Sequence record: MN871446.1
Reading direction: 5' to 3' (one strand)
Source of the DNA: Klebsiella phage KpLz-2_45
DNA length: 64,000 nucleotides
The notes under the pieces: generated by a model
Databases searched by the model: none
Told to the model about the DNA's origin: nothing
Seen by the model: the letters and a program-made list of their open reading frames with translations, nothing else
Position numbers and translations under genes: made by a program
Shown: piece after piece, positions 693 through 44,595 of the stretch
Layout of the letters: every line of letters begins with the position of its first letter
Position numbering within the stretch: the first letter of the stretch is position 1

Positions 693-1868
693 ATGGCTTC
701 ATATAACCAAATCATGCAAGACAACCTGGACCTCGTTTTTCGTGCGGGTGGTCTGGGTTCTCGTCGTGCTGCGGCCTATGAAATGTTGTTCGGGTTAAAT
801 TATCGAGCAAGAGGACAGGTCGTTCCGGCGCAACGAGATCAGGTAGGTCTCACATTTTTTACTCGTCCAGACCTGAACTTACACAGGGACAACGTTACAC
901 AAGATAGGACGCTGACCGATTTGATTTCCACTGACGAGATCACGTATCCTCGTGCGATTCGTGCGATTCTCGACCCCGTGGGCTCAAGTGATCCTAACTT
1001 TGATTACAGTTGTAAGTTGGTCAATCCACGTAACCCTTTCATGTGCGTTTTAACGAATACCTTAAAAAGCGTTTCAGGTTTCCCTGACAACGCCATTGGT
1101 AAATACACCAGTAATGAAGGGATTGCCGGTGAACAATGGGGGATGGCAGACGGCTATTACAACATCCGTGGTAACTATCAATTGACAGCTTCATTCGCTA
1201 ACGTTGACGGTTCCCCGGTTCTCAGACTCTTCGATGTCTGGGAACGCTATATGGAAAATATCCGCACCAAAAAGATGAAGCCGTGGAGCCGAAATATTTA
1301 CCGTAATCGAATGGATTACACCACACGTATTTATCGTCTGATATTGGACCCCGGTCGGCGCTTTGTTCAACAGATTGGAGCCACCGGTTATGCGTTCCCT
1401 ATCACTAACCCACGTGGCGGTGTCATGAACTTTGATGCGGACGATAACTACGACCGCAGTACGGATCTGATTTCCATTCAGTTTGACGCTTACGGTGCGA
1501 TTTATGACGATCCGTTATTGATTCGTCAATTTAATAAAGTCGTGGCCATGTTTAACCCGGATCTGCGTATCATCAATGAAACCAGTTTAAACAAAAGTAA
1601 TATCGCGGTGAAGAGTAACAACTATTATCGTGTCACTCCCGATCAACGAGAATACCTGAACTATTATTGTTACCCTCTCATTCATCCGTATACTCGAGAA
1701 CTCTGCTGGTTTATCGAGAAACCGATTTACGACTTAATCATGGCGAACAATTACGCTGTTCCTAACTACGACTATAACGCACTCCCTAACGATACTGATG
1801 ACACTTATACCGGTTATCAGTCTAATGTTTGGGATACCCTTGACCTCACGAAATCAGGAGACAATTAA
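693..1868 (+). CDS. hypothetical protein (possible virion structural protein)
   Basis: 391 aa ORF; RBS AAGGAG upstream; TAATG overlap with the next gene. Confidence 0.6.
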   Translation: MASYNQIMQDNLDLVFRAGGLGSRRAAAYEMLFGLNYRARGQVVPAQRDQVGLTFFTRPDLNLHRDNVTQDRTLTDLISTDEITYPRAIRAILDPVGSSDPNFDYSCKLVNPRNPFMCVLTNTLKSVSGFPDNAIGKYTSNEGIAGEQWGMADGYYNIRGNYQLTASFANVDGSPVLRLFDVWERYMENIRTKKMKPWSRNIYRNRMDYTTRIYRLILDPGRRFVQQIGATGYAFPITNPRGGVMNFDADDNYDRSTDLISIQFDAYGAIYDDPLLIRQFNKVVAMFNPDLRIINETSLNKSNIAVKSNNYYRVTPDQREYLNYYCYPLIHPYTRELCWFIEKPIYDLIMANNYAVPNYDYNALPNDTDDTYTGYQSNVWDTLDLTKSGDN

Positions 1869-4774
1869 TGTCTGATTACGACGTTAGTGCGGCGTTAGCG
1901 CGCGCACCGATTAACCCGGAATCCTTTCAGCGTGTAGGGATCGAATTCCTGACGAGCAAATTGAACGGTGACTCGTTAGTGGATGTAAATGCGCCCGCTA
2001 TTCACTTGCTCGAAGCGAGCAGTTCGATGGCGGCTTATCATATCCAAGAAAACTTTGCGTTAGACCGTCGCCATTATCGTTTACTTGCGCAGAACTACAT
2101 GGACCTTTATGGCCATCTTTCTGACGTTGATTACCTCGGTCGTTTTAGTTCACCGGGGAAAGTCACCATGCGGTACACTGTGAGCTACGATGACATTATT
2201 GCCAGCATGATCGAGGTCCCTGACACCAACCTGAAACGCGTGGTGATTCCGCGTTACACTGAAGTCAGACCAGGCGGTGATTACCCGTTAACGCTTCTCT
2301 ACCCGATTGAGATTCGACAGCTCCCGCATGACGGTTTACAAGTGGTGTTCAACACCGACGAGACCAGTCCGATTCAAACTTTGACTGATAACGTTCTGAA
2401 CTGGCAGTTCTTAAAAGACGCCACGAGCGATCAAGCAACTTATTTGCAGATTGAGATCCCCATGTTCCAGTTGGCCAGGAACAGTATCATCGAACAGATC
2501 TCCGACGGTAATTCTCGTTTCGCGGTACCGTTCACTGACAAATATTACTACGCCCGTGTTTTCCAGGGAACAAGCGGAAATTGGAAAGAACTCGGTACTA
2601 CGCACTCTCTTCAGGTTTACGACGCATCGTCTCCCACGGCGGTATTGCAAGTAGGCGACGGGGTTCTTAACGTTACGATCCCGCCTATCTATTACACAGC
2701 GGGCTTAGTCTCTGGTAACCTTCGTATCGACGTTTATACTACGCAAGGCGAGATCTACGAAGACCTGACTAACTTCGCAACCGAGAAGTTTCAGATCACC
2801 TGGGGAAAAGACGCCGAGATTCCTGATCTCGACAACTACTCATCGAGTATTCCTAACCTCCCTTATGCGTGGACGTCGACAGAAGCGATCACTGGGGGAT
2901 CAGACGGTTTGACGTTTGAGGAACTTCGTGAAAGAAGTATTTTTAACGTTTCTAATAGCGTAGATAATACTCCTATTACTCCGGCACAAATTTCTGCACG
3001 CTTGAATTTGTTAGGGTTTGATATTGTCAAATCCAGAGATGACATTGTTGATCGTCTTTATCTGGCGACCACGAATATGCCTACTGCACCGGAATCAATT
3101 CTCAATGCAGGGATTCCCGCAGCGATGACGACGCTTCAAACCAGTATTGAAAAGTTAACGAAAGTCCAGGGTGTTTACGATAACGGTGATCGTATTACGT
3201 TATCGCCGGAAGTGCTCTTCTCGTTAACTAACGGGGTGTTATCACTGGTCGATAATAACATGCGACCGGAAGTACTGTATAAAACCCCGGAAACATTTGT
3301 CAATGGAATCAACCAAGCGAACTACGCGTTTACTCCGTTCCATTACGTATTAGATACGAGTTCGAATGCGTTCTCATTACGACCGTATTACCTGCAAAAC
3401 CCGGAACAAACCAAACGCCGTTTTATCCGTGACAACGCCACGCTCCTGATTGACGTCAGTACAACCGGTTTCAACATCACCCGTACGACAACAGGCTACC
3501 GACTGACCATTGCTTGCACAGTGGGGCAGAGTTACTTAAACATCGAGGCAAGTAACCGTCATGTTCAGTTGGCCTTTATCCCTGCCGGGGAAAACGCTTA
3601 TGCTTATCTGAACGGAACCTTTATGGGGATTACCGGGAAAACGGCAGTCTGGGCGTTTGACTTTAAAACCAACTTCGATCTGGACAGTGACAACAATCTC
3701 ATTATCACCAACTTCAGTATCTTTGAGGAAGAACCGCGTAAACTGGCATTACCGTTAGAAACGGAGTTTATGTTATTACATGCGGTCAGCGGTGATGTTG
3801 ACGACGGTTATCAGTATTCGGCGATCGACGGATTGCTCGGTGAGTTTTTACTCCCTGACGACACGAAAGGGATCTCGCAAGAGTTTGTTACGCTGAAATT
3901 TGGTACAGCGTTAGAACGACTCTGGCACGGTGCACGTAACGTAGCCGGTTCTTACGTTTATCAGACCTACGCAAGTGACGTCTACGATTATTACACCGCA
4001 GACATCCCGGAATACGATGCAAACGGTGTCCCGGTCTTTGTCATTGAAAATGGTCAACCGGTGATCTCTTATGCTCACAAATCAGGGGATCAAAAAGTGG
4101 ATGGTTCGGGTAACCCGATTGTCTTACATAAGGCGGGCGACCCCGTTTTAGACAGTGGCGGTAATCCGGTTCCCGTATCCGCAAGACCGGTACTTCGTCT
4201 CATCGATCTCTTGATCTTTGACGGTAACTACGCCTACGTCTCTCAGGATACGGATTTGACAGATTTGAAATGGACAGCAAATAATCTGGCTAATACACAA
4301 CTCGAGAAATTAGCGGAATTAGGAAACGCAGTCCTGGAGAAAACCAATATCTACCTCTACCCGAAACGCGGCTTCGGTCCAATTTCGGTTGTCGTTGATG
4401 ACGGGGTGGAGAAAGTTATTGACTCGTCACTGACCTTTTCCGTGAAGTTCTATTTAACTGGGACGGCGTATCGTGATATGGACTACCGGGCTGCGTTACA
4501 AACGTTGACTGCGAAGATTCTGAACGATGGTATCCGAAACGAAACCGTTTCTGTCTCAACACTGGTTACGTTGTTGAAACCACAGCTCGATGAGAACGTA
4601 GTCGGCTTTGATATCAACATGTACGCACAAGGGACGGAGATGACCACCTTCACGCTTTCTGACGCATCGGTTCAACCTACCATTGATCGGGTGATTGAAT
4701 ACACCGAGGACGGTAAATACGCCGTGAAAGAAAACATTGAGTTTCTGTTTAAAAACCATACGGTAAGTAACTAA
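1868..4774 (+). CDS. large hypothetical protein (possible virion structural protein)
   Basis: 968 aa ORF translationally coupled to the upstream gene; followed by a hairpin terminator. Confidence 0.6.
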   Translation: MSDYDVSAALARAPINPESFQRVGIEFLTSKLNGDSLVDVNAPAIHLLEASSSMAAYHIQENFALDRRHYRLLAQNYMDLYGHLSDVDYLGRFSSPGKVTMRYTVSYDDIIASMIEVPDTNLKRVVIPRYTEVRPGGDYPLTLLYPIEIRQLPHDGLQVVFNTDETSPIQTLTDNVLNWQFLKDATSDQATYLQIEIPMFQLARNSIIEQISDGNSRFAVPFTDKYYYARVFQGTSGNWKELGTTHSLQVYDASSPTAVLQVGDGVLNVTIPPIYYTAGLVSGNLRIDVYTTQGEIYEDLTNFATEKFQITWGKDAEIPDLDNYSSSIPNLPYAWTSTEAITGGSDGLTFEELRERSIFNVSNSVDNTPITPAQISARLNLLGFDIVKSRDDIVDRLYLATTNMPTAPESILNAGIPAAMTTLQTSIEKLTKVQGVYDNGDRITLSPEVLFSLTNGVLSLVDNNMRPEVLYKTPETFVNGINQANYAFTPFHYVLDTSSNAFSLRPYYLQNPEQTKRRFIRDNATLLIDVSTTGFNITRTTTGYRLTIACTVGQSYLNIEASNRHVQLAFIPAGENAYAYLNGTFMGITGKTAVWAFDFKTNFDLDSDNNLIITNFSIFEEEPRKLALPLETEFMLLHAVSGDVDDGYQYSAIDGLLGEFLLPDDTKGISQEFVTLKFGTALERLWHGARNVAGSYVYQTYASDVYDYYTADIPEYDANGVPVFVIENGQPVISYAHKSGDQKVDGSGNPIVLHKAGDPVLDSGGNPVPVSARPVLRLIDLLIFDGNYAYVSQDTDLTDLKWTANNLANTQLEKLAELGNAVLEKTNIYLYPKRGFGPISVVVDDGVEKVIDSSLTFSVKFYLTGTAYRDMDYRAALQTLTAKILNDGIRNETVSVSTLVTLLKPQLDENVVGFDINMYAQGTEMTTFTLSDASVQPTIDRVIEYTEDGKYAVKENIEFLFKNHTVSN

Positions 4775-4780
4775 AGCACA

Positions 4781-4815
4781 TAGACTGAGAGGCGAATGCC
4801 TCTCAGTCTATTTAT
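4781..4815. terminator. bidirectional hairpin terminator between convergent genes
   Basis: tagactgagagg-cgaat-gcctctcagtcta perfect 12 bp stem followed by TTTAT. Confidence 0.6.
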
Positions 4816-6050
4816 CACGCATCGGTAGATTCGGGTTGTGCACTAACCATGTAGATGTAAAGCCGTTTCAACCAGCGGCGGTTGTCATCGTAAAAATCCA
4901 GTGAGACGTCCGTCACAAATTGCAGAATGGTCAAACATTCATGGACATGTTCACTGACGTGACGGATCTGCTGAACAACGGTTTTATCACGGTCGTTATA
5001 CTTCGACTGCTCAACTAACTTCTCGGTCGCTGACAATGAAGCATGTACCCGCTTTGAAACCGCAATGATTCGATCACCATCGGCATCGCTGAACAGTAAC
5101 GGGGAGGTTTCGACTTTTAAGTTATCGTACGCATGTTTACAAAGGTCGGCGATCTTGGTGCTGTCAAAAGCAATATCATTATTGACGGCGACTTCTTTAA
5201 GATCGGCCAACGTTTGATAACCGCTTTTGATTTTTTCCAGCGTACTATCACCTTCTGCGTTCAACAACTTAAAGATCTTCTCGAGATCCGTTGACTTAAA
5301 CCCGGTGCTCTCTGCGGAAGTGATCTCGTGACCCTCGTCCCACTTCCCAGTTACTACAGCCTTCACTAACGCTTCAAGGCGGTCCACGTTCGTCTCGAGA
5401 TAGTCAACGATTTTACCCGGATGTCTAATAAAGGCACCGAGTGCTTTGTGCAAGTTTGTATCCGTGATCGCCCTGGCGCTATATTGGCTGTAGTTATCGT
5501 TGATGGCGGCAGCGATAGGGGAAAGCTTTTCGTCGTTAACGATTTCTTCTTTGCTGCGCATCTTAAACTGGAAGCCCAGTTCGTCAACCTTTTTCAGAAA
5601 CGCATCAGTCTCTTCCCGTTTGACCTTCCCGATTGCCTTGTTAAAAAATTCACCAAAGGCTTTGATTTTCTCACCCACCCATTTTAACGCCCGTTTGATC
5701 ATGCTTAAAATGGAATGACCGATCTGTTTAATGATCTCTTCACAGGCGACGTTCTGTTGTGTTTTGGAACGCTTCAGGGTATAGGAGTTAGTCGGGTAAT
5801 GATCGGGGAAGGGGAGAATATTCAGAGCTTCCACTGCCGCCATACTGGCACGATCAACACCGTTCTTCTCCACGTCTTCGAGTGTCTCTTCCAGTGCCTC
5901 AAGTTGCGCATCGTCACCCACACGTTTCACCATGTAAAATGACCACTGGTTATTTAACTCCATGACGATATCGCGGAGATTTTTACCGTCCTCACCGACA
6001 AACGTGAATACGCCGGGTACCGGCTTCACAATTTGATTATTCGTTTCCAT
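4815..6050 (-). CDS. hypothetical protein
   Basis: 411 aa ORF; 14 nt overlap with the downstream gene. Confidence 0.55.
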   Translation of the reverse strand: METNNQIVKPVPGVFTFVGEDGKNLRDIVMELNNQWSFYMVKRVGDDAQLEALEETLEDVEKNGVDRASMAAVEALNILPFPDHYPTNSYTLKRSKTQQNVACEEIIKQIGHSILSMIKRALKWVGEKIKAFGEFFNKAIGKVKREETDAFLKKVDELGFQFKMRSKEEIVNDEKLSPIAAAINDNYSQYSARAITDTNLHKALGAFIRHPGKIVDYLETNVDRLEALVKAVVTGKWDEGHEITSAESTGFKSTDLEKIFKLLNAEGDSTLEKIKSGYQTLADLKEVAVNNDIAFDSTKIADLCKHAYDNLKVETSPLLFSDADGDRIIAVSKRVHASLSATEKLVEQSKYNDRDKTVVQQIRHVSEHVHECLTILQFVTDVSLDFYDDNRRWLKRLYIYMVSAQPESTDA

Positions 6051-40200: not shown

Positions 40201-40377
40201 TTTATTCCCCTGAAAATGAAATCGCTTACAGAGCTTCCTGTTAGCTCTATTAAGGTAATATATGTTTTAAACCAACTTCACTGGTTAATTAACTTCTTAC
40301 TATTTTAACGATAACAAAATAATTACACAGGCGCACGACTGAGAGAGGCAAAACCTCTCTCAGTCGATGTGTTTTAC

Positions 40378-42561
40378 TTAGATGATCTGATTCAAGTGTG
40401 CGGTACGTGTGCTCAATACCCTTCCCCGGAAGAGTACCTCTTTACTCCGCCAGTAGTCGAGATGTTTATCAATGTTCATGCAAACAAAGCAATGATAACT
40501 CTGTGGGAATTTCTTCTCCCCTTTGAGTTCACGCAAACGCCCTAACGCCTGAACGTTCGCGTTTGGTGAGTCAATCGCAACGGTCAGATAGGCTTGCGTC
40601 AAGTTAGGGATATCCACCGCGGTACCGGATTTACCAATCGTACTGAAAATGATATCCGAATCCAGTAACAATTGATAATCGTCTCCTGATGTAAAGGAGT
40701 TGATCACCAGTTCCGGGAGACGTTTCCTGAAGAACGTGGCCAGGCGCTGGCACATCTCAATAGTCGCCGAGAAGATTAACAGCTTATGTTCCCTTTTCCT
40801 CTTCTCTAACCAGTTATCCTTGGTGTAGTCAAAAAGCGATTCTTGCCACCGTTGCTCTCGTTGCCTGTCTGCCATGATCCAGGCTTCGTACGTCGTATGA
40901 CTGTACGACCCTTGACCTCCGACGACTTTCGCTTTCTGCCAATCCTTCAGATTATACTGGACTTTCACCAGATCGATATACCTACTTGGTTGCCCGCCAT
41001 TTCGCCGCAGTTTTTTCGGTAAGAAGGTTTCGTAGATGAAAAGTTGAAAATCCATCTTAGCCAATAACGTAGCGGTCAAATAAATCTTTTTCGGAACATG
41101 CGAATAGAGATCAGAGACAAAGTTCGCATGAATTTCTTTATGCGCTTCATCAATGATAACCAGACCTATCCCCAGAAACTCCCAGAGATCTCTCGGATTG
41201 ATATCTTCGCAATCAGTCCCAACCACTCTCCCGTTATTCCAGTTCTTGTAAAAGTCCCTCAACGTGGCTGTGGAAATGAAAATCGCCTTAACATTATCAA
41301 TACCGGTAGTCTTCGCTTCCCGTAATAAACGATAGAGCTTTACACAACCGCAGCACGAACGAACCTCTTCCGGCTTGAGATTGAGTTTAGCGTAAAACTC
41401 CGGTATCCATCGATCCTCGTAGCCGCCGAGTGTTACCACCGCAAAACGGGTTCCGTTATTCTTTGCCATCGCCAATGAACAAGCCGTGTTATGGGTCACG
41501 ATATAGTCATCGGTGATGTAGAGATGTTCAGGGTCATCAATCATGATGCACTGAGTGGCCTCAGGCTCGCGTTCTTCGATTGAAGTAATAGCTAACCGCT
41601 CTTGGGTGAAATCGACACGTAATGTGTCCCTTGCCTCATCTAAGTAGGCAAGGCCACCATAAGCCCGTGCGGTATATTGTATTGCCTCCAACAATTCAAG
41701 GCCCCCTAAACTAACCGTAAACTCCATTTCGTCCTGCGAGGTCTCTGTTACCATTCGGAAGTCGGCAGGTAAAGTCTGACCGAGAATGAGCGGCACAGAG
41801 AAAGAACTTTCCCCTAGCCGGTCTTTTATTTCGCGGGTCGTGATAACTTTATCTTGTTGTTCCTCGTTTTCTCGTACTGACCAGAGATGTTCCGGGTTAA
41901 CATCGGTATACCGCCCATCAGCAAAGTGGATACGCCAGACGTCAGTCACGCCCTGCGGGAAGACCCCTATGACAGAAGCGAGGCGCCTCTTAGGTGTCAC
42001 GACCTGTTGCCCGACTTTCATCTCGCCCATGGTTAACCAACCGTCAGGGACTCTGATCTTAGAAGAAAGCGTCTGAGCCTTACCGAACCCAGGCTCTGCG
42101 GTGATCGCTTTCTGGATACCGGGACCCGAACCGAATTCAATAATCGGCACCTGGTTATCCCACGGTGTGAAGTCCATCTCAAACTCAAACTTCACCGGTT
42201 CGTACATCGGAACAACATCGATTTCAAACGTGCAGCCATTCCATTGGTATTTTTCCGCTTCCTGTTTAAAGCGTTCCAGTGTGTTGATGTGGAAACACGT
42301 CTCTTCCGTTTCAAGGTCTCGGCGTGCGTAAACCTTGGTAGGTTCCATTCGGAATCGCCCACGTTTCTTCACTAAGTTTTTCTCAATAAAGTGCTCAGTG
42401 AATTGTCGACGGAATTGTCGGCCTTTGGCGGTATAGGCAAAAACGGAAAAGTAGTGGCTATATTGCGTGATACGTAGATCCAATGTCTTAGCCCTCACAG
42501 GTGATAATCGAATCTCGTAGATTCTTTTCTCTAGGTATAGGTCTCTATAGGAATTACTCAC
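40378..42561 (-). CDS. SF2 (DEAH-type) helicase interrupted by an intein
   Basis: Extein motifs GFGK|TACSLAMA (motif I split by the intein), VIIDEAHK (II), LTATL (III), QALGRLRE (VI). Confidence 0.65.
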   Translation of the reverse strand: MSNSYRDLYLEKRIYEIRLSPVRAKTLDLRITQYSHYFSVFAYTAKGRQFRRQFTEHFIEKNLVKKRGRFRMEPTKVYARRDLETEETCFHINTLERFKQEAEKYQWNGCTFEIDVVPMYEPVKFEFEMDFTPWDNQVPIIEFGSGPGIQKAITAEPGFGKAQTLSSKIRVPDGWLTMGEMKVGQQVVTPKRRLASVIGVFPQGVTDVWRIHFADGRYTDVNPEHLWSVRENEEQQDKVITTREIKDRLGESSFSVPLILGQTLPADFRMVTETSQDEMEFTVSLGGLELLEAIQYTARAYGGLAYLDEARDTLRVDFTQERLAITSIEEREPEATQCIMIDDPEHLYITDDYIVTHNTACSLAMAKNNGTRFAVVTLGGYEDRWIPEFYAKLNLKPEEVRSCCGCVKLYRLLREAKTTGIDNVKAIFISTATLRDFYKNWNNGRVVGTDCEDINPRDLWEFLGIGLVIIDEAHKEIHANFVSDLYSHVPKKIYLTATLLAKMDFQLFIYETFLPKKLRRNGGQPSRYIDLVKVQYNLKDWQKAKVVGGQGSYSHTTYEAWIMADRQREQRWQESLFDYTKDNWLEKRKREHKLLIFSATIEMCQRLATFFRKRLPELVINSFTSGDDYQLLLDSDIIFSTIGKSGTAVDIPNLTQAYLTVAIDSPNANVQALGRLRELKGEKKFPQSYHCFVCMNIDKHLDYWRSKEVLFRGRVLSTRTAHLNQII
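41488..42078 (-). mobile_element. mini-intein (197 aa, no endonuclease domain), probably class 3 (Ala1, WCT)
   Basis: Inserted between GFGK and T of Walker A; Hint block A-like PDGWLTMGEMKVGQ; block B TDVNPEHLW (His..Trp); block F EATQCIMIDD (Cys); C-terminal VTHN then +1 Thr. Confidence 0.6.
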
Positions 42562-42585: not shown

Positions 42586-42622
42586 AACAAAAAAAAGAAG
42601 GAGGGAATTACCCCTCCTTCTC
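42586..42622. terminator. symmetric bidirectional terminator
   Basis: A8, GAAGGAGGG-AATTA-CCCCTCCTTC, T-run on the minus strand. Confidence 0.6.
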
Positions 42623-42627
42623 TCACC

Positions 42628-44595
42628 TTAGATACGTTTTAAACGCATTTCCTTATCGACATCCAACAACAGATAGTCGAAGGGATGGTTCTCTTTAATC
42701 GGGTCATACGAGCCCGGAGAGAGCATGTTTTGATACTGCTTCTCGTAAGCACATTTCACCGAGAGACTCCGTCCAGACATGATATCGGATTTCGTAGCGA
42801 AGTAACGTCCCGTCCCTTTCTTCGGTAAACGGAAATCGCCATTCTTCGGATCACGCGACATCATGGCGTAAAGGACAATTTCCACAATCGCCAGGTTAAC
42901 CGAGAACTTACGGTTCGTCATTTCCGAAATGTCTTTCAACGCCATCGCCAGAATGTCAGGGTCGGTTAAGTCATACCGTAACCGCTCTTTCGATTCCTTA
43001 CTCGACATGAAGATATTGGATTTTAACTCCATCATCATCTCGAGCGTCGAGCTATGACGTTCCGGGAATTTCAGAATACTTTCTGAAGGGTCCCAGTTTT
43101 TCAGATCAACCCGAATCTTACGCCCTAAGTTCTGGAAACCGTAATCCTTCATGTGCTGAATAAAGGCAGCGGTTAAGAACGGTTTATAAGACGAATGACT
43201 TGTAGCGATCAATTCTTCCTTGATAGTCCCTTTGACATCGCCTTGGTGAACGATGATCATGACGTCTTCTACGCCTGAAATACGGCGGAGGTCATTTTGA
43301 CTGAACTCGGTCATCGCATGAATATCGGAAAGACGTGGCAGATACGCCATATCGATTTCGATTTCCACATGATGATTCCAGATCGCCTCAGACAGCATCA
43401 GCTCAGAAATATCCGACGCATTGACCATATAGTCCTTATAGAACGGATCGATTTCAAAACCTTCCGTCTCAGCAGAGCGCAGAAGGTGTTTCGTCGAGAT
43501 AACGTCCTGAGAGACCTTTTCGTTCTGGGTTACGGTTGCAGCATGTCCCAGGTTAGTGCCTCGTTGTACGGATCGCGCCAACTGGCCCATACAGGTGCTA
43601 CAGACTACGCCGTCATCGGGGTGCCAACAACACGCCACATTCCGCAGCTGGATCGTTTTCCCTACCAGGAAGACGTCTCCTGCCTTAATGGCTTTGAGTT
43701 GTCCTGTTTCAGTGAGATAAAACTTACCGGGTAAGATATTATCCAGTTCGTTTTTCTTCACCGTCCACGGGATCGTTTCCGTACTTCCGCAATCCCCCAT
43801 CCAAATGCTCTTCACAACGTACGTAAAGAGCTGCAGCTCACGGTTATAATACTCCGTCTGCTTAACAGGATCGTCCGTCGCCTGGAGCGCTTTAGAGGCG
43901 TCTCTGGAGATCATGGCGAAGAAACTGGCCCGATGTATCCCTTCGAAGAAACCCGCATTGACGACGTTAGGAAAGATGCTCTGATCAACTTCAGAACACC
44001 ACCCTCGTTTCCCGATGACCTGGTGGAACTGCGCCATCTTCGTCTGACCGATGTGACAGGCCAGCGCCATGCTGTTCCCTTGTAAGAAGGGGTCAGTGGC
44101 AATCACACGGGAAATCACCCCGTATGCACGGTTGACCCCGCCAGGGCTCGGTTCCATGTTATAGAGCGCATTCTGGATCTCAGGGCGGTCGTAGATATCC
44201 AATAACGTCAGAACATCAACGGTATCGATATACGCCTCGCCGCGCGTCGTGAAGGCATTGTGTAACCGGTTATTGCCGCGATAGATAGCAGCCTGTAGGT
44301 TTTCAATGTCTTCATGCGGATACGCTTCGAGAACAACCTCCTTCATGCGGTTGAGGATTTTTAATTCCAACCCCGGCGAATCAAAGTCATCCCAGAGATG
44401 ATGACGAATACTGATTTGTGCGTCAGGGTAGTCTCGAAATACCTCCCAGAAATACCAACTAACAATCGTCTGCGACCAATCTGTAATGATCTCGCCATCA
44501 CTGAAGACTAAACGAAATCGATCGTGGTCGTGTTCCTTTTTCCAGAGTTCTTCCTCGGTCCAGTGTACGATGTCTTCTGCCCACACAACTTGCAT
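42628..44595 (-). CDS. hypothetical protein translationally coupled to the RNAP beta-like gene (candidate RNAP subunit)
   Basis: TAATG overlap with the upstream beta-like gene; Cys cluster CCWHPDDGVVCSTCMG; no NADFDGD. Confidence 0.45.
   Translation of the reverse strand: MQVVWAEDIVHWTEEELWKKEHDHDRFRLVFSDGEIITDWSQTIVSWYFWEVFRDYPDAQISIRHHLWDDFDSPGLELKILNRMKEVVLEAYPHEDIENLQAAIYRGNNRLHNAFTTRGEAYIDTVDVLTLLDIYDRPEIQNALYNMEPSPGGVNRAYGVISRVIATDPFLQGNSMALACHIGQTKMAQFHQVIGKRGWCSEVDQSIFPNVVNAGFFEGIHRASFFAMISRDASKALQATDDPVKQTEYYNRELQLFTYVVKSIWMGDCGSTETIPWTVKKNELDNILPGKFYLTETGQLKAIKAGDVFLVGKTIQLRNVACCWHPDDGVVCSTCMGQLARSVQRGTNLGHAATVTQNEKVSQDVISTKHLLRSAETEGFEIDPFYKDYMVNASDISELMLSEAIWNHHVEIEIDMAYLPRLSDIHAMTEFSQNDLRRISGVEDVMIIVHQGDVKGTIKEELIATSHSSYKPFLTAAFIQHMKDYGFQNLGRKIRVDLKNWDPSESILKFPERHSSTLEMMMELKSNIFMSSKESKERLRYDLTDPDILAMALKDISEMTNRKFSVNLAIVEIVLYAMMSRDPKNGDFRLPKKGTGRYFATKSDIMSGRSLSVKCAYEKQYQNMLSPGSYDPIKENHPFDYLLLDVDKEMRLKRI

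Follow-up and report, generated by a model that had tools for sequence, protein, structure and literature searches.

A Predicted Class 3 Mini-Intein in the P-Loop of an SF2-Type Helicase of a Klebsiella Jumbo Phage

Introduction

Class 3 inteins are defined by a non-nucleophilic residue at position 1 that co-varies with a tryptophan in block B (B:12), a cysteine in block F (F:4) and a threonine in block G (G:5), the Trp-Cys-Thr (WCT) triad (PMC2807308), and the first residue that follows the intein (+1) is Thr or Ser (PMC2807308, PMC5050341). A catalytic triad view of these inteins has been set out (PMC7664689). In DnaB intein 1 of Mycobacterium smegmatis (MsmDnaBi1), the block B His is His65, the WCT triad consists of Trp67, Cys118 and Thr137, and the C-terminal pair is His138-Asn139 (PMC6195587). 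The point between the lysine and the threonine of an ATP-binding P-loop, written K/T below with a slash for each intein junction, is a "classic" P-loop insertion site of inteins (PMC5050341; also PMC2807308).

In this study, we analyzed a 64,000-nucleotide stretch of DNA from Klebsiella phage KpLz-2_45 (MN871446.1), referred to as the window, in which a helicase gene on the minus strand carries an insert of 197 amino acids (aa) in its P-loop. Judged by its sequence, this insert is very probably an active class 3 intein, housed in the P-loop of a superfamily 2 (SF2)-type helicase of a Klebsiella jumbo phage.

Results

The Insert and Its Empty Site

The original prediction had held that a 197-aa insert at 41488-42078 splits the helicase P-loop and that its removal restores the motif, and both statements were borne out. 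The positions are exact, and the key codons were verified: the insert occupies residues 162-358 of a 727-aa open reading frame (ORF; 40378..42561, minus strand) that runs uninterrupted across it, and the protein is divided as follows.

42079..42483, minus strand: N-extein, 135 aa, ending in AEPGFGK with the first four Walker A residues
41488..42078, minus strand: intein, class 3-type mini, 197 aa, Ala1 to Asn197
40378..41487, minus strand: C-extein, 369 aa plus stop codon, with DEAH, TAT and QxxGRxxR motifs

The junctions read AEPGFGK / AQTLSSK...YIVTHN / TACSLAMAK, which places the in-frame insert between the Walker A Lys and Thr, and the border cannot shift because the flanking residues differ (K vs N, A vs T). 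Excision gives GFGKT, as found in phage FBKp24, whose 504-aa helicase is 85% identical overall and leaves these exact 197 residues as the sole gap of the alignment. The FBKp24 and Centimanus helicases are both 504 aa long and insert-free, with exteins 81-86% identical to those of the window; they read GFGKTACSLAMAK, and GFGKTACSL is contiguous in them. The spliced sequence, used as query, retrieved 120 clusters of orthologues. Of these, 82 are intein-free and measure about 500-540 aa, and nearly all of the 82 have GxGK(T/S) unbroken near residue 135. The remaining 38 clusters measure 629-868 aa, and 36 of them carry an insert of the same family exactly at K/T; for the other two (P0192, P0200), the N-terminal border of the insert was left unresolved. 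These comparisons mark the insert as a removable element, and a natural empty-site allele shows the P-loop restored. No second intein was detected in the window by tblastn and a search with the family hidden Markov model (HMM) in all six frames.

The segment might instead be read as an ordinary accessory domain of this helicase lineage that is not removable, which would agree with the absence of any Pfam or NCBIfam intein domain and with related genomes that annotate merely "DNA helicase" or "hypothetical protein". We regard the chance of this as next to nil: Walker A is cut between its invariant Lys and Thr, the segment is absent precisely from the closest orthologues as well as from the 82 insert-free clusters, and the same element, with its HINT (Hedgehog/intein) fold, occurs in unrelated ATPases, terminases and an RNA polymerase subunit. 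Homologues that carry the segment as a normal domain beside an intact P-loop had been named in advance as the observation that would speak for such a domain, and the orthologue alignment came out for an intein. The ordinary-domain hypothesis was rejected on the exact FBKp24 gap and the 82 of 120 uninterrupted orthologue clusters.

Splicing Motifs and Class Assignment

All of the motifs quoted earlier were recovered, namely PDGWLTMGEMKVGQ for block A, NPEHLW for block B, EATQCIMIDD for block F and VTHN followed by T. The features concerned are listed here.

42010..42078, minus strand: block A region AQTLSSKIRVPDGWLTMGEMKVG, with the Ala1 codon GCT at 42076-42078
41881..41898, minus strand: block B NPEHLW, with Asn61 (B:7), His64 (B:10) and Trp66 (B:12, WCT triad)
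41548..41550, minus strand: block F Cys177 (F:4), predicted initiating nucleophile and sole Cys of the intein
41488..41496, minus strand: block G Thr195-His196-Asn197, with the triad Thr (G:5), penultimate His and terminal Asn
41485..41487, minus strand: Thr+1, first C-extein residue and predicted second nucleophile, also the Thr of Walker A GKT

Two details had to be amended. Block B had been described as TxxH and is actually NxxH; VTHN and the Thr+1 are present as stated, but the Thr of the WCT triad is block G position 5, Thr195, and not Thr+1. The proposed signature of Ala1 plus Trp-Cys-Thr stands, as all of its residues are present, align with MsmDnaBi1 and match the published description (PMC2807308). 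We found a non-nucleophilic Ala1, Trp66 two residues past His64, Cys177, Thr195 and Thr+1, together with the general intein feature of a C-terminal Asn followed by a hydroxyl or thiol residue at +1 (His196-Asn197 / Thr+1). Within the block A region, the family alignment shows no variation at Gly13, Trp14, Gly18 and Gly23. In its residues, the window intein fits the published class 3 definition in full.

By the class 2 (KlbA-type) intein criterion, the window intein falls outside that class. A class 2-like route, in which an active intein would splice by direct attack of Thr+1 on the N-terminal junction with no Cys177 branch, nevertheless has points in its favor: Ala1 is common to class 2 inteins, and sequence cannot fix a mechanism, given that WCT grafting failed to convert a class 1 intein (PMC7664689). 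With the whole class 3 residue set in place, we consider this route highly improbable.

Several observations weigh against an active class 3 intein. First, neither the whole protein nor the insert by itself matched a Hint or intein family of Pfam or NCBIfam at E <= 1; these scans returned only sub-threshold DEAD and ResIII matches and a spurious SH3-C_UBE2O at E = 0.09. Because these models miss the segment, the intein is recognized from pairwise and profile searches together with the predicted fold. The miss is a sensitivity limit of curated models for a divergent family and does not touch a defining biochemical feature. Second, WCT residues grafted onto a class 1 intein were alone insufficient for class 3 splicing (PMC7664689), and the signature alone is therefore no proof of mechanism. 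Third, B:7 is Asn in the window intein vs Asp in MsmDnaBi1, and block A position 12 (Asp) varies to Gly among close alleles.

Similarity to Characterized Inteins

A phmmer search of the insert against PDB gave five matches, which were in order MsmDnaBi1 6BS8 (E = 2e-7), MchDnaB1 6RIX and 6RIY, 6RIZ (class 3-engineered gp41-1) and 6QAZ (gp41-1). The alignment sets His64, Trp66, Cys177, Thr195, His196 and Asn197 of the window intein on the six MsmDnaBi1 residues named above, in the same order. An AlphaFold2 model built from a 17-sequence alignment of related mini-inteins reached a predicted local distance difference test score (pLDDT) of 94.7 and a predicted template modeling score (pTM) of 0.89. 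The seven best Foldseek matches of this model are class 3 structures (E = 6.5e-9 to 4e-8, target TM 0.79-0.89), headed by 6riy, 6bs8 and 6rix. As modeled, the insert has the HINT fold.

Selection on the Intein and Its Exteins

Across five intein-bearing phage alleles, the ratio of non-synonymous to synonymous rates (dN/dS) was 0.08-0.12 in the intein and 0-0.02 in the exteins; the latter showed 0-2 non-synonymous vs 11-25 synonymous changes. The catalytic residues are unchanged in all five alleles. A helicase with a split Walker A that is under such strong constraint must have the motif restored by splicing, and the purifying selection seen in the intein as well as in the exteins speaks for continued splicing.

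These data bear on whether the element could be a decayed, pseudogene-like intein that has lost splicing, leaving a helicase that is inactive or acts without ATP binding. Such a relic would accord with the decay of its homing endonuclease, which puts the element past the mobile stage of its life cycle, and a comparable non-functional class 3-like intein, Arthrobacter Arth_1007, has been described (PMC3196547). We judge a relic very unlikely in view of the intact catalytic residues, the low dN/dS values and a confidently predicted fold throughout.

In the comparison of the window with Serratia/Klebsiella phage KpSz_1 (MN871448), the synonymous rate (dS) of the intein was 0.19, about 4x the extein dS of 0.05. 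This suggests that the intein segment was exchanged by recombination and has a history apart from the rest of the gene.

Loss of the Endonuclease

Orthologous helicases carry same-site inteins of 346-356 aa with a LAGLIDADG endonuclease (Pfam LAGLIDADG_3), examples being P0006, P0013, P0028, P0157 and those of Serratia phages 2050HW and Haymo. Full-length inteins of this kind in jumbo phages (2050HW, Haymo, metagenomic P0006 and P0157) share with the window the orthologous helicase and the identical K/T point, and many same-site full-length inteins begin with AQTLSSK as the window intein does. Whereas these retain LAGLIDADG, alignment to them showed that the window intein (197 aa) and the P0003 intein (198 aa) have lost both LAGLIDADG motifs via several deletions and have retained pieces of the domain, e.g., TVSLGGLELLEAIQYTARAYGGLAYL vs TFSSTSKNLSMAVQYLVRSLGGIAKI. 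The retained part in the window is as follows.

41599..41790, minus strand: LAGLIDADG endonuclease remnant, about residues 97-160, with a helix and strands kept, including the YLVRSLGG-equivalent motif

No LAGLIDADG Pfam match was obtained in the window protein. The AlphaFold2 model folds the remnant into an alpha/beta subdomain (pLDDT 80-95), and many relatives that were shortened independently share its "RSxGG" helix. In functional terms, the original description of a mini-intein without an endonuclease domain is correct, both LAGLIDADG motifs being deleted, but a folded remnant of about 60 aa stays, so that the domain is truncated and not absent.

Given its confident fold and the recurrence of the "RSxGG" helix, the remnant could conceivably have been kept for a function, either to stabilize or time splicing or to bind DNA. 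If so, the intein would be a post-translational helicase switch during infection, comparable to mycobacterial DnaB inteins, whose splicing is conditional. None of our tests favored a regulatory role; in particular, the second Cys of MsmDnaBi1 that makes up its redox trap is absent here, and we think such a switch very unlikely.

The splicing blocks of the same-site full-length inteins are 48-57% identical to those of the window intein. In helicases with exteins just 29-39% identical, the splicing domain is still about 48-53% identical, and the closest extein relatives of the window helicase have an empty site. These patterns point to a distribution that is sporadic and horizontally influenced, as expected from the homing cycle. 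The ancestor would have been a full-length intein with a LAGLIDADG homing endonuclease, of the type still at the same site in related jumbo phages. Deletions would then have taken both endonuclease active-site motifs and left a copy that is presumably immobile, vertically inherited and kept only by the need to splice.

In Serratia phage 2050HW (NC_048668, locus 2093-4655), the LAGLIDADG domain of the same-site full-length intein is frameshifted, and the helicase is therefore annotated as two coding sequences, "DarB-like antirestriction" and "DNA helicase". By comparison, Haymo has an intact orthologue (P0167, 853 aa). The frameshift could stem from an error in sequencing or from decay of the endonuclease, and a split intein is conceivable.

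Size and Spread of the Intein Family

An exhaustive HMMER search with the 197 residues detected 8643 representative proteins at E <= 1e-3, of which 3972 reach E <= 1e-10; a word-indexed homologue search with the insert alone returned two fragments only (P0001 and P0002). Conservation was counted over 203 intein copies in the 150 best HMMER proteins. Of these, 201 have both the His and the Trp of block B, all 203 have the block F Cys, and 193 end in C-T-H-N/T (162) or C-T-H-N/S (31). Residue 1 is Ala in 136 copies and mostly Pro, Glu, Ser, Cys or Asp in the others. The insertion context is GxGK/T in 111 copies and GxGK/S in 12, besides other xxGK variants, and the median intein length of 343 aa implies that most copies carry an endonuclease. 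The combination of host and site seen in the window is typical for the family. Relatives also occur in SNF2-domain proteins, e.g., P0022.

Among sequenced phages, tblastn matched 386 records, which include 161 mycobacteriophages and many jumbo phages of Vibrio, Pseudomonas, Aeromonas, Serratia, Klebsiella and Erwinia. Class 3 inteins had been called rare; with this number of phage records and with 3972 relatives at E <= 1e-10, the family is very abundant in phages and metagenomes, and the label does not hold.

Two relatives are described here in their own right. P0177 (862 aa) lies on a 205,581-bp contig that is labeled Salmonella enterica serovar Oslo, is filed as a bacterial genome record and is probably a jumbo phage; its same-site intein starts with Ser (GFGK/SLALDSD...THN/T) and is one of the WCT-type inteins that retain a position-1 nucleophile. 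In Pseudomonas phage EL, gp39 (RNA polymerase beta'-like, locus 1763-4873) carries a full-length WCT-family intein (AAGK/AGVLSSK...FIVTHN/S) with two LAGLIDADG-type motifs (LGVLLGDG, LLDTDGT), whose splicing blocks share 56% identity with those of the window intein. The window orthologue of this gene (42628-44595, minus strand) is intein-free.

Host Gene and Its Surroundings

The window sequence matches Klebsiella jumbo phages of about 300 kb. The helicase gene is 100% identical to those of MN871447 and MN871451 and 97.8-99.5% identical to those of six other phages.

40378..42483, minus strand: helicase precursor gene, 701 aa from TTG 42483, SF2-type DNA helicase
42593..42624, minus strand: strong intrinsic terminator, a hairpin with T-run that separates the helicase gene from the RNA polymerase subunit gene upstream, outside the intein

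The most likely start is TTG 42483, which is preceded by GAGGG and is the choice annotated in related genomes (FBKp24, MJ359) and made by gene callers; no ribosome-binding site precedes GTG 42561, which sits immediately past the upstream terminator. A 701-aa gene call, P0153, is identical to the window precursor. The product sizes first proposed, 727 aa before splicing and 530 aa after, are accordingly replaced by 701 and 504 aa, 26 residues fewer.

The protein matches PHROG 16 "DNA helicase" (E = 8e-30), and its sequence gives the SF2 motif order GFGK/T ... DEAH ... TAT ... QALGRLR. Many orthologues have precomputed DEAD, ResIII or Helicase_C domains. The spliced helicase had no significant phmmer match in PDB, and in Pfam its DEAD score of 22.4 bits is under the cut-off. 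The SF2 assignment therefore rests on PHROG 16, the motif order and the precomputed domains of the orthologues.

Directly upstream of the gene are two RNA polymerase beta-type subunit genes and the intrinsic terminator listed above, and a terminator is annotated at the equivalent position in FBKp24. A second hairpin with a 13-bp stem (40336-40366) was seen just past the helicase stop codon. With hairpins on both sides, the helicase gene looks like a separate transcription unit.

Discussion

By analogy with characterized class 3 inteins (PMC2807308, PMC7664689, PMC6195587), on which the following scheme is modeled, we infer that this copy splices and does so via a block F branched intermediate. 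A 701-aa helicase precursor would be translated with its ATP-binding loop interrupted. First, Cys177, placed by His64, Trp66 and Thr195, would attack the Lys(-1)-Ala1 bond to form a thioester branched intermediate. Second, the N-extein would move to the side chain of Thr+1. Third, Asn197 would cyclize with the help of His196 and free the intein. Finally, an O-to-N acyl shift would yield the Lys-Thr bond, restoring GFGKT in an active helicase of 504 aa.

The finding has a direct bearing on annotation, as the mature helicase would be 504 aa long, not 701 or 727, with a P-loop intact only after splicing. We found no description of this particular intein in the literature on FBKp24 and jumbo-phage helicase inteins, and it is unannotated in related phage genomes, a silence that is probably due to the failure of curated Hint and intein models on this family. 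One gene family presents the whole intein cycle, with empty (FBKp24, Centimanus), endonuclease-bearing (the 2050HW/Haymo group) and endonuclease-less (window, P0003) members, and WCT-type inteins prove abundant in jumbo phages. A compact class 3 intein with a single Cys and Thr+1 could be of modest interest for protein engineering. The understanding of inteins is left unchanged, class 3 inteins in phage helicase P-loops being a textbook case.

The window intein resembles MsmDnaBi1 (6BS8) and M. chimaera DnaB1 (6RIX/6RIY) in being a class 3 mini-intein in a helicase P-loop, with Ala1, the block B His and Trp, the block F Cys, the C-terminal THN and a hydroxyl +1 nucleophile that doubles as the Ser or Thr of the P-loop. 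Identity to them is only about 16-22%, and the hosts differ, DnaB being an SF4 RecA-type hexameric helicase and the window host an SF2 helicase. The mycobacterial DnaB inteins have Ser at +1 and Asp at B:7, where the window intein has Thr and Asn, and they are 139-145 aa long with a linker that is short and disordered, in contrast to the folded endonuclease remnant of about 60 aa in the window intein. In MsmDnaBi1, a second Cys (Cys48) forms the redox trap; this internal disulfide trap cannot operate in the window intein because it has a single Cys, and a trap of the MsmDnaBi1 type was ruled out for that reason. The Cys at +3 of the C-extein is present in intein-free orthologues too.

The DnaB intein of mycobacteriophage Bethlehem, the class 3 prototype, is like that of the window phage-encoded and hosted by a helicase, with the WCT triad and Thr+1, and it has a LAGLIDADG-type endonuclease, as do the full-length same-site relatives of the window intein (PMC2807308, PMC5050341). 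Compared by description, it differs in its length of 341 aa with the endonuclease, in its host protein and in its phage lineage.

The Deinococcus radiodurans Snf2 intein, likewise compared by description, belongs to class 3 and is hosted by an SF2 (Snf2-type) ATPase/helicase, and the original claim that a class 3 member sits in an SNF2-type helicase is upheld. For this intein, the block F branched intermediate was reportedly detected by Brace et al. in 2010. It differs from the window intein in its bacterial host and in the subfamily of the helicase.

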